DNA from: Candidatus Bathyarchaeota archaeon
Lineage (GTDB): Archaea > Thermoproteota > Bathyarchaeia > Bathyarchaeales > Bathycorpusculaceae
Reading direction: 5' to 3'
Length of the DNA: 64,000 bases
Assembly: GCA_963717465.1 (NCBI GenBank)
Contig: OY970340.1
Coordinates: 1,152,001 to 1,216,000, forward strand
Shown: positions 1-64,000 of the stretch, piece by piece
Layout of the letters: each line of letters starts with the position of its first letter
Position numbering within the stretch: the stretch's first letter is position 1
Made by a program: the position numbers

Positions 1-3000
1 TTAAAACAGATAGTAGAAAACGGCTATATTAGATGGTGTGTGGAAAAGGGTGTTCCAGAGGAAAAACTCCAAGACAGCAGACGCTTCTGGACTTTTATAG
101 AGTGGGTTGCTGAAAAACCTCACTTGAGAGAGAGCCTTGTGAAGACTGGTTGGGCAAGTTGGGAAAATAAGTGGCGAGAAGAAATATTCAAGAAACCGTT
201 AAACTTACGTGACTAAACTATTCATTTACTAAAAGTGCGCACATACATCTTTTCCGATGGTCAAAAGTCTTAAATCGGCAAAAGAAATAGGCTCAGAAAA
301 GATGAGAATTTATGGTGTAAGTCTCTTTGGTTCGTGTAAAGAACGGTTTATAGCGCGCTAGAAAACTCTTGAAGCATTAAAAGGAACAATTTAAGATATT
401 GAGGGCTAAAAAGAATAATTGATTAATCTCTATCAAAGCAAATTTTAACTGAATGTCCAATGTGCGTGGAAAATTTGAGTAATAAGTTTCAAACCAGACA
501 ATATATTTTTGAAAAATCCATAGGTTATAATTATAGGTTGCATTCTTAATCTCTTAGTTCTAAGTGTTGATTGACATGGACTTTAAGTTGCATATCATTA
601 AGCGAGAAGACATTTTGGATTATTCTCAAAGGAATCGCATTTGCTTTGCGGTAATTGATATGCGCAAGTCTAAGAGTTATCCTTCAAATTTTGTTTGCAT
701 GTTGCCAATGGAAGTTCGAAAAGGCAAGAGTGAGAATGGTTTTGGAAGAGTTTTTGGTGAAAATAGTGTTGAACAGGCAAAGCTTTTGTTAACTGATGCT
801 TTAAAAACAGTTGATGATTCTGAGGTTAGAGTTGAGATAGAGCGAAGACTAAGACTGCTTGAGTCCAAACAGGTTAATCAAATAAAGTGCAGTGGTTGTG
901 GAAAGTTATTTCAGCCCAAGCGTTTAAGAAGGTTCAAGAACAATTTTTGTGAAGAATGCATGAAGAAGAGGTTGGCACGGCGAGATTAAAGACTCCTCAC
1001 GCGCGCTCAGTTTCCTCTTATGAAACATTCAGCCATTTATGAATTCTGTCACGTGCGTTAACAAATCTTATACAGGCACTCTACTTTTTGGCTAAGCGCT
1101 ATAGCTATAATTGAGTCGTTAAGCAAGCTTCCATTTAGAAGCTATTAGTATTGAAGCTCTTTGTTAACCTGATTTATCGCTGGTTTGCCCTCAGACACTC
1201 GTAGAATATTTTCCACAGCAAGTTGCAATTCAGCATTCATGCCTGCATCTGTAAGGGCTATGTTGTGAGGTGTGGCGATAACATTCGCTAACTTCCAAAA
1301 CTCATATGGTTGAGTTTGACTAGATTCTGCCGATGGGTTCCACCAAGGTTCAGACCACCAGACATCAAGCCCAGCACCAGCAATCCATCCTTCTTTTAAA
1401 GCTCTGTAAAGCGGCTCTTCCTGAATGATTTGACCGCGGCCAACGTTCACAATATATGCTGTATGCTTCATTAAGTGGAGTTCACGCTCACCAATCATTC
1501 CACGCGTCTCAGGCGTCAAAGGTGCAGTAATTACCAAAAAATCAGACTCCCCAAGAACATAGTCAAGGTCACGGGGTCCGCCTAGGAAGTCAGGGATAAA
1601 CTTAAGTCCCGAGGTGTCTTTCGGGTCTCGCTTTGTTGCATAAATCTTCATTTCAAAAGCTTTGAGGAGGCAAGCCACTTCCATTCCTACGTGTCCAATG
1701 CCTATAATGCCAGCATTTTTTCCTCGCAGTTCAACTCCCATTCTGGTTGTGTCGTCTCCTTGCGGGAAAAGGTCGTGTCGACGAACAATGTGCTTGGCTA
1801 GGGCCAAAACAAGAGCAACTGCTCCCTCAGCTAAAGGCGTTGGGTTAGCACCTGACGTATTTGCAACAGCAACCTCCTCTCTCAAAACATCGAAGGGTAT
1901 ACCATCGACGCCAGCCCCAATCTTTTGAACAAGTTTAAGCTTCTTAGCCGCCAAAGCTACTTTCTCAGAAAGAGTAACACAGATTATGATATCGACATCA
2001 GCAGCAAGCTGCACCAGTTCTTCCTCGGTTCCCTCCGTAGGAACGATTACTTGAACATCATCAGGAAACATACCTTTGAAACTCGAAAACATAGACATAG
2101 ACTGAGACAAAAGAATCCAAGGAAAAGCAAGCAAAACCTTCATGAAAATCACTAAAGAAAATGAAAAATACCCATTTAATAAAGTTAATGCCATTTTACG
2201 CAAATCTTTAACTGATTCAACTGAGGGCAAACAGCGACTCACTCCGAGGAACCGCTAATGCGGTAGTCAGCTTGAACCTATTTGGCACACGCTGGCTTAT
2301 CCCTTTAACGATTAAAAACTCTATAAGTCTGATTTTGCTCATTAGAGCCTAAAATGGGCTTCTTTGATAACCAGTTTTTAGCCGCGCTAAGAGAGGATTG
2401 AACACAGAAACTTCACTACACTTCTTAACTAAACTGGCTTCAGCCATAACACCTAGGAACAATCAGCGTCTTGGGCAAAGATCTAACTTAGCTTACAATT
2501 TGTAGAAAGTTATGCAAATCCGCAATAAATGGGAATAGTGGCTGTGCTTTTACTTTGTTAGGTTTCTTGAGTCTTAGGAGCAGTTGAGTTCAGCTTAATA
2601 ACGTAATTCGTGTTATTCTTCACTGAAACGGCTGCTGGTACTGACGGATTGTATCCTGTGGCGCTGGCTATGATTGAGTAATCGCCTTTTTTCACGTTGC
2701 TAAAAACAGCTTCTCCCTTGCTTCCAGTAGTACCTGCCAAAGATTTCGGACCACTAACTGAAACCGTTGCTCCTGAAATCGGCGAGAGCGTTTCCGCATC
2801 TTGCGCCGTCACCGTAAGCTTGCGGCCGCGTCTGAACAATAGAAGGAATAGTAAAAGTAACGCTATGATAGCGATGACGACTACAACTATGGCCCAGTCG
2901 AGTGGACTGAAAACAAATGCTGCTGTACCTGCCGGCGACAAAGTTGGAGTGGGCGTTGGCGATACTGTAGGAGTTGGAGTGGGCGTTGGCGATACTGTAG

Positions 3001-63000: not shown

Positions 63001-64000
63001 ATCGGAACCATCACGTCTGCCGAAAAGAAAAAGAAGATACTTAGTTGCTGGAGCTGGCCCTGCAGGATTAGAATTCGCCAGAATTGCAACTATCAGAGGT
63101 CATAATGTAACCGTTTACGAAAAGTCAAACGATATAGGAGGGGCTATTAATTTAGCCATGAAACTACCGGGAAGAATGGAATATGATGGCTTCAAGAGAT
63201 GGCTTAAAATGCAGTGTGACAAGTTAGGCGTTAAAATTGTCCTCAATAAGGAGGTTACACCTGAACTTGTTAAGAGCGAAAACCCAGACGTTGTAGTGTG
63301 CGCCACTGGAGCTGACCCCATGCGAGACGGTGATAACGCGGGCGTATATTGTGCTATTGAGGGTTGGAATCAGCCGAACGTATGCGTAGGCGAAGACATT
63401 ATTGAAGGCAAAGTTGACATGAGCAAACTTGGACCACGAGTGATCATTTATGATCAAATTGGCTATGATGAAGGTTTGGGAATTGCTGAAATGCTGGCTG
63501 ATGCAGGAAAAACTGTTGATATTAGGGCTGCAGCGCATTTCGTCGGTGGTAATGATGTATTCATGACTATGCAATTTGCACAACTATACGAACGCCCTAT
63601 GTCAAAAGGAGTAAAGTTCAGTCCAATGTCGATGATGACATACATAAATGGGAACAAAGCCGGGTTCATGAACGGATTTAGCCATGAAATGTTTGAAGTA
63701 GAAGCAGATTCTTTTGTGCTCTGTGTGTCTAAATCGCCAAATGATGACCTATTCAAGAAGCTAATGGCAGCAGGATACAAACACAACGGCAACCTATACA
63801 AGATCGGCGACGCCAATAGTCCGCACAACATCTGTGACGCTGTTTACTTCGGTCACGTTTTAGGAAGAGAAATTTAAAAGTTCTCACTCTTTTTCTTTTT
63901 TTCCTTAAAATTGGCAAACTTGCTCACTATTTAATTATCTTCTATGTCCATTTTAACGACCACGCCCGTTATTAGTCGCCTCTGTTGTCATCGCAACTGC

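Follow-up and report, generated by a model that had tools for sequence, protein, structure and literature searches.

A conserved palindromic arm at the far ends of integrated elements in Bathyarchaeia, and its probable part in attachment by zinc-ribbon tyrosine integrases

The window analyzed here is a 64-kb stretch (contig positions 1152001-1216000) of a 3.05-Mb single-contig Bathyarchaeia genome. Its sole tRNA gene, tRNA-Ala(TGC), was located by tRNA search at 21143-21217 on the minus strand and anchors an array (attB/attL). A 19-nt arm pattern matched the window once, at 7754-7772 on the minus strand with one mismatch (0.02 matches expected), where a profile HMM also found it; the pattern was absent from positions 21218-64000. 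The palindrome core of this arm lies at 7756-7767 and its A-tract at 7778-7783 (minus), which reads as a terminator-like T-tract on the plus strand. Starting 11 nt past the arm, the T-loop and 3′ end of tRNA-Ala(TGC) are repeated with 22/23 identical positions, as part of a displaced T-arm and acceptor 3′ strand (7721-7746, minus; an attR-type core, from the tRNA match). A second displaced T-loop and acceptor 3′ strand at 8597-8619 (minus) is identical at 23/23 positions, and the arm beside it is truncated to the A-tract and part of the palindrome (8633-8649, minus), a remnant read from the sequence that was missed by pattern and HMM alike. The full arm and the remnant lie 13.4 and 12.5 kb behind the tRNA. 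The copy at 8597-8619 is followed by a short acceptor-strand repeat that resembles those next to integrase genes.

No integrase gene was found within the 64-kb window. The annotated cargo of the proximal segment (10910-20542, plus) is integrase-free and comprises unknown ORFs, a metallo-beta-lactamase-fold protein, an ACT-domain protein, a BspA-type LRR protein and a type III-like adenine methyltransferase. An IS5/IS1182-like insertion sequence occupies 8874-10081 (plus; transposase 9008-10018, with terminal inverted repeats of ~23 bp judged by eye), and a 75% identical copy of it sits between two arms in locus L016. The T-arm of the tRNA together with ~550 bp of non-coding flank (20596-21170, minus) recurs behind the scar at 7148-7748, with 89% identity over ~600 bp. 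This second flank copy (7148-7720, minus, by sequence comparison) opens the next segment, which is 39 kb long and ends with an arm at contig position 1120514. The flank also contains a GT-rich repeat that is dispersed elsewhere in the genome. Among the tRNA-Ala(TGC) loci of 16 same-genus relatives, an integrase stands beside the tRNA in 5 and arms occur in 7, with variable inserts and a common backbone 3.6-25 kb away; that backbone is located elsewhere in the present genome, which therefore offers no exact empty allele.

Alignments of arm sites gave a constant layout of A-tract, G-run and GCG followed by the dyad GGNGA-N2-TCNCC, about 10 bp ahead of the duplicated target sequence. Variation is confined to two central bases and two symmetric N positions, and is symmetric about the dyad centre. 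Since sites had to have an A-tract and a G-run, arm counts are biased toward good arms. Tails were classified for 226 arm sites in loci of at least 1.5 kb with Bathyarchaeia titles, drawn from outside this genome: 87 carry a tRNA 3′ end, 8 an antisense tRNA 5′ end (D-arm), with a few further D-arm tails read by eye, and 63 a T-loop only; the remaining 68 are without a recognizable tail, and for part of these partner repeats were paired. In the tRNA-tailed sites the T-loop starts 10 nt after the arm in 65/87 and 9 nt after it in 18/87. The genome-wide survey's note had counted the tRNA fragment as part of the conserved repeat, but that fragment is the displaced end of the target.

At E<0.05, an HMM trained on 114 arm sites from relatives matched the genome 23 times and its reversed version not once, which bears out the earlier estimate of about 20; the 19-nt pattern with up to 3 mismatches gave 14 matches versus 1 in the reversed sequence. 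For 13 of the 23 copies a same-strand tRNA lies no more than 20 kb upstream, compared with a mean of 3.7 and a maximum of 13 in 2000 rigid rotations that preserve clustering (p = 0.002), and only 3 lie within 20 kb on the opposite strand of a tRNA. The previously claimed enrichment behind same-strand tRNAs thus holds, with a thinner margin than under the earlier null. As for the anchors named in that survey, ARAGORN agrees on Ala(TGC), Glu(CTC), Cys and Ala(CGC), but the intron-containing tRNAs listed as Arg(CCT) and Tyr are called Arg(acg) and Lys(ctt); a tRNA-Pro(GGG) array is also present. Both defense islands that had been said to be delimited by arms were recovered: TIR/ThsB, QueC and TGT lie between two arms of the Glu array, and PtuA/PtuB, DinG and pAgo/pPIWI lie between the Arg tRNA and an arm. 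One pattern match, at contig position 830583, falls inside a gene and was discarded. Across the class the arm pattern occurs in 119/301 genomes, with the reversed control rarely matching, in agreement with the proposed spread through Bathyarchaeia; a stricter pattern was found in 30/401 genomes of the phylum and in 5/340 outside the class, so that the motif is not strictly Bathyarchaeial but reaches a few other families. Exact matches in bacteria and most matches in viruses were without A-tract and tail; these look like chance coding sequence and were set aside.

In complete elements, direct repeats of the target end flank both borders and the target is restored; the integrase lies close to the target, and the arm accompanies the far repeat. 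When the far repeat was located first, an arm stood in front of it in 12/15 cases overall. Searches that began from the target repeat recovered the arm in 4/4 elements, then in 3/3 and in a 38-kb provirus at tRNA-Ser (G332), whose arm is a longer variant detected by core search; for D-arm elements it was present in 3/3, two of them near-identical, and also in L629. The three far repeats lacking a clear palindrome are one 32.9 kb from an Ala integrase (G312) and two at this genome's intact His element, whose integrase gene lies at contig positions 2397348-2398691; both of these repeats keep the A-tract, next to a dyad that is either decayed or extended. Of the tycheposon hallmarks (excisionase, small serine recombinase, replication module), for which no dedicated search was made, this element showed only a D5-type primase-helicase. 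For most integrase-tRNA loci no far repeat was found within the 1-20 kb examined per locus, nor was one found for the remnant in front of the tRNA at 2316394. Arms are missing from two elements that carry integrases of other types. In one virus record (L317), the integrase and then the arm lie between terminase and portal genes, no tRNA is present, and the gene order on each side matches the two ends of related proviruses. Judged by gene order, this linear, 72% complete record appears to be an attP-like joined form; a 12-bp repeat in it falls within a gene and was put down to chance. Overall, the arm pattern was present in 1/10 virus records, several of which are trimmed at the integrase. The proposal that one widespread integrative family has this repeat as its distal attachment end is upheld by the placement of integrase and arm at opposite ends of elements and by the attP-like virus record.

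Targeting is broader than the tRNA-directed insertion first proposed: the T-loop tails fit it, but arms also accompany antisense D-arms and non-tRNA repeats of 15-22 bp. In this genome, an arm is present with 18-bp repeats 41,452 bp apart, alongside an integrase remnant, and with 22-bp repeats spaced by 5,087 bp at the end of a gene; random 80-kb searches gave 18-bp repeats in only 2/200 controls. The 41-kb element holds the second tRNA-Sec and the second selenocysteine module, and independence of the arm from its target explains some copies far from tRNAs, such as this selenocysteine island. Non-tRNA sites are also occupied by these integrases in three families beyond the class, where the repeats measure 15-18 bp; five elements there, 3.6-12.9 kb in size and found arm first among 20 regions, have an arm ahead of their far repeat. 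Position, orientation, target independence and the tie to one integrase family are properties of the arm that can be read directly from genome sequence.

Proteins of the arm-linked integrase family are ~440 aa long and carry an N-terminal zinc ribbon resembling that of IS1 InsA; a disordered linker joins it to the tyrosine-recombinase core, which is followed by a short C-terminal beta domain. In the predicted structure a folded ribbon (residues 43-87) and a disordered linker (88-149) precede the core; PF00589 was detected in 6/6 integrases tested, and the fold matches XerA, IntI, Tn1549 and lambda Int. Arm-linked elements yielded 22 integrase ORFs that are full-length or cover the N-terminus; the zinc-ribbon stretch is present in every one, and in 2 of them the first CxxC is truncated or altered. 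The family occurs in 178/301 genomes of the class, and its remnants lie directly behind many tRNAs and scars, oriented toward them. Among 90 loci picked by integrase alone, 77 of which had 150 nt of room past the stop, a convergent tRNA 3′ end lies within 200 bp of the stop in 58; 11/14 arm matches in integrase-selected loci were upstream on the predicted strand, and reversed DNA gave 0. Between tRNA end and stop the acceptor strand of the target is repeated, direct or inverted, over 6.3 nt versus 5.0 nt for permuted cores. In the 401 phylum genomes, whose kin are not independent, the arm was found in 26/57 with the integrase and 4/344 without it; the strict pattern detected no arm in 31/57 integrase-positive genomes. 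In a FastTree phylogeny of 129 integrases (midpoint root, target labels from ARAGORN), grouping mostly follows the target (Cys, Ala, Leu, Arg, Ser, Pro and others); D-arm users are spread over several clades, and the ribbon is present in 95/129. One locus (L048) weakens the zinc-ribbon assignment: its integrase is split and ribbon-less, yet the nearest scar bears an arm, and the ATG of that arm shares the reading frame of the integrase.

Taken together, these observations make it very probable that a single family of zinc-ribbon tyrosine integrases, carried by head-tail proviruses and by cryptic elements of 2-41 kb, has this repeat as the conserved P arm, on the element side, of its att site. 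The attP would run from A-tract and G-run through the palindrome, ~10 bp of spacer and a target-like core to a short P′ piece and the integrase stop, with the gene pointing at the core. Integration leaves the integrase proximal to the target and the arm with the displaced target end distal, as the sequences of complete elements show. A new element may enter the regenerated target and shove older ones outward, and as these shed their integrase end and kept useful cargo, arm-core scars would accumulate co-oriented behind tRNAs. In the joined state the A-tract probably serves as a T-tract terminator of the integrase transcript. Since integrase clades differ in target and the arm is constant, the arm is probably bound by a target-independent module; our tentative candidate, a prediction that we rate a little short of an even chance, is the zinc ribbon on its long linker, by analogy with the arm-binding domain of lambda Int.

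The tandem arrays themselves allow another reading, in which integrase-free, two-ended cassettes are excised and reshuffled singly by integrases acting in trans, with arm-core scars as attC-like sites. Among 110 site-to-site segments of up to 20 kb (loci selected as for the tails), none carries an intact integrase, 4 carry remnants and 106 carry none, the last with a median of 1.3 kb, as such cassettes would; by comparison, an intact integrase was found in 12 of 47 tRNA-to-site segments under the same length limit, 8 of these from integrase-selected loci. Likewise, an integrase stop adjoins only 3/109 metagenome sites, a 0.67-kb segment in L035 is duplicated with exact ends, the tRNA-Ala flank recurs behind a scar not only here but also in L006 (71% over 1.6 kb), and certain non-tRNA tails recur across several genomes exclusively behind arms. 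However, the P′ signature, which scores 6.0 beside integrases versus 4.3 when shuffled, is not enriched behind 65 integrase-free junctions (4.58 versus 4.35, shuffle maximum 4.69), although it is clear in single cases. Flanking genes run in both orientations (120/131 upstream, 98/126 downstream), no whole segment is common to different genomes among 157 segments, and when compared with integrons the sites show no attC-type hairpin, the cassette genes are not co-oriented, and the integrase scores 46.6 bits against the IntI-type model TIGR02249 (cut-off 265). We therefore consider single-cassette shuffling distinctly unlikely. The arrays described earlier as tandem cassettes do exist, and they look like accreted, decayed elements, unlike integrons. 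The simplest account of the two flank duplications would be co-excision in a donor up to a distal arm, integration here and later loss of the carrier, such that distal scars probably act as alternative excision ends and cargo blocks leave with an incoming element; an old local duplication is a possible alternative. Together with the exact-ended duplication in L035, these flank copies point to movement that has gone on.

Three further explanations deny the arm a direct part in recombination or place its conservation elsewhere. A 12-bp dyad is typical of dimeric regulators, and the palindrome could be an operator through which an element or host regulator, such as an RHH protein or the product of a small antisense gene within the integrase, governs transcription or directionality at the att site. 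In 17 loci a conserved ORF of ~60 aa does run antisense to the part of the integrase gene that encodes the linker; in L552 it lies close to the arm end, and in L048 the palindrome overlaps a possible start codon. That ORF is known from 23 distinct sequences, however, against 259 (partly redundant) loci with the large integrase, and no accessory gene is common to most complete elements. Its protein has no Pfam or NCBIfam match, and every lead to an Atlas helix-turn-helix cluster stayed below 0.9. The one-turn spacing from palindrome to core is fixed, and of the intergenic palindromes in the genome (18 versus 2.9 expected) most are in arm context, so that a host regulon was rejected. An operator is accordingly an unlikely but serious competitor, and the small ORF may have a directionality role. 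Conservation at the protein level, in which the arm would be int(N), the 5′ part of the coding sequence in SSV-type split integrases, would fit L048, where a ribosome-binding-like G-run, an ATG and an open frame run through the T-arm into the integrase body, and it would fit a first arm triplet that is nearly always TTG, ATG or GTG. But complete elements carry whole integrase genes with their own start and in the opposite direction, where an SSV-type att would lie within a split gene; residues encoded by the arm change radically while fourfold-degenerate positions stay fixed, and the armless tRNA-Val locus of this genome is itself a split integrase. As a general explanation int(N) is refuted and very improbable, with the L048 clade a possible exception. 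Least credible of all is a terminator or small RNA without any role in recombination, an alternative that the survey's note had itself raised. A C-run plus T-tract, which is what the opposite strand of the arm presents, is ~3-4 times commoner after host ORFs than at control positions, the T-tract motif follows 61/2588 host ORFs versus 16-22 in controls (16 before ORFs), a modest signal, and zinc-free integrase genes elsewhere end right in such a tract with the palindrome absent. The A-tract may well terminate transcription on the opposite strand, but a small RNA is unsupported: folding of the arm site is no better than shuffles (z 1.06 and 0.55), a property that also speaks against attC-like sites, an Rfam scan of it returned no family except tRNA, and the arm is always linked to duplicated target sequence and to one integrase family.

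Beyond the preferred reading of the repeat as an element-side attachment arm, a wider proposal can be sketched, which we put forward as speculative and rather unlikely to hold as a whole. These enzymes could be the first archaeal lambda-Int-like integrases, in which the ribbon reads a universal arm, the core switches target (T-loop, antisense D-arm, gene ends) and the nested antisense gene supplies a directionality factor. With the universal arm preserved at each scar, old scars would be usable as excision ends by any family member, viruses included, and defense and metabolic genes could be exchanged class-wide in this way.

Whatever its reader, a shared arm is a simple way to map integrated islands in this uncultured, abundant archaeal group, and it delimits them even where no tRNA or integrase remains. 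In this genome it bounds the Septu/Argonaute block, the TIR/QueC block and the 41-kb element with the second selenocysteine module. Given a target-independent arm and candidates for both its reader domain and an accessory gene, the question of helpers and directionality becomes testable with purified protein, and a family that combines one arm with many target specificities could supply integration tools for archaea.

Stacked tRNA islands are already known, and a single end-mark common to many targets was not found in the literature searched; a full-text search, with most subscription papers beyond its reach, returned no paper on this motif or family, and the borders of some of these elements may already be given in published supplementary att tables. 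In the available text on Prochlorococcus, tRNA-seeded islands are built by tycheposons and cryptic elements (bioRxiv 10.1101/2020.12.28.424599), and they resemble the present arrays in having tyrosine-integrase elements proximal to the tRNA, partial tRNAs and integrase fragments deeper in, and cargo stranded by captured flanks; the differences are the archaeal hosts, the conserved arm at every scar, and the D-arm and non-tRNA targets. CIMEs, as described in the part of PMC5704250 available, are integrase-less decayed elements in tandem that are co-excisable with a new element and keep both attL and attR. The tandem decay is alike, but here the attR side is retained and most segments have no P′ signature; no conjugation module was seen, none having been searched for. 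Tandem arrays and integrase loss have also been described for integrated elements of Thaumarchaeota and other archaea (PMC6563490, PMC8371274), which share the tRNA 3′ and gene-end targets, short att repeats, proviruses, cryptic elements and tandem integration seen here; in the text available of these two papers, att is defined by the shared repeat alone and no conserved arm is named. SSV-type integrases, including that of pTN3, are suicidal, and pTN3 targets the 5′ half of a tRNA (PMC8371274, available text), whereas 5′-half targeting here is by whole integrases that share their arm with T-loop clades. In SNJ2 a whole integrase adjoins attP, with conserved P/P′ flanks and small accessory genes (PMC5861418, available text), an organization close in outline to ours with different hosts and a different motif. 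According to the available part of PMC8371274, characterized archaeal integrases require no essential helper or directionality factor, and arm-type sites are used by lambda-type heterobivalent integrases.

Lambda Int binds its arm-type sites through an extra N-terminal beta domain on a linker. The bathyarchaeal enzymes are alike in having an additional N-terminal beta domain on a linker and an asymmetric attP with a site outside the core, and they differ in that one palindrome serves many specificities and that the predicted arm binder is a zinc ribbon of the IS1 InsA type.

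The sole intact zinc-ribbon integrase of this genome, a member of the ~440-aa tyrosine integrase family linked to the arm (the conserved repeat that marks the far end of integrating elements), lies upstream of tRNA-His in the element at contig positions 2397194-2413970 (locus L218). A D5-type primase-helicase accompanies it there, and the 5' end of the tRNA-His is repeated twice, 15-17 kb away. In some of these integrases the linker carries a conserved antisense nested ORF of ~60 aa, as at L370:18289-18462 and L255:10082-10264 (both on the minus strand), and a free-standing homolog was located at contig 2410766-2410978. 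Family searches of Pfam and NCBIfam returned no match for its product.

Targets other than tRNA genes were also observed. The virus record L317 and the loci L040, L006 and L464 have in common a non-tRNA core (the target-like sequence behind the arm), followed in two of the four by an integrase end; a search for the corresponding target in this genome found none. Outside the window, a 41-kb element occupies a non-tRNA site (contig 2793353-2834805), with an integrase remnant, an arm and a repeat of 18 bp marking its borders; it carries a second tRNA-Sec, a PSTK-SelB copy and methyltransferase genes.

Within the window, three genes form a block (10910-14809) that resembles a defence operon, although PADLOC gave no match to it; two of them encode unknown proteins, and the third a coiled-coil protein with a metallo-beta-lactamase fold. 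An IS5/IS1182-like element (8874-10081) has a homolog in L016 that likewise sits between two arms, and it may have a preference for these arrays. A non-coding, GT-rich repeat (20596-20950 and 7148-7530), which contains a palindrome and short direct repeats, has further copies at contig 832938, 1806449, 1922126, 2162662 and 2249593; no copy turned up among those loci of relatives that the search covered. At 54150-64000 lie methyltransferase, corrinoid and molybdopterin-enzyme blocks that recur many times across the genome at 70-80% identity and are not bounded by arms.

Degenerate, near-full copies of tRNA-Leu and tRNA-Gly without an arm (contig 625400-626300, 406075-406140 and 1131133-1131205) are a different kind of duplication from the arm scars. 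Also arm-less is an element in tRNA-Val(TAC) (contig 909723-916660), whose split, frameshifted integrase is of the SSV type.
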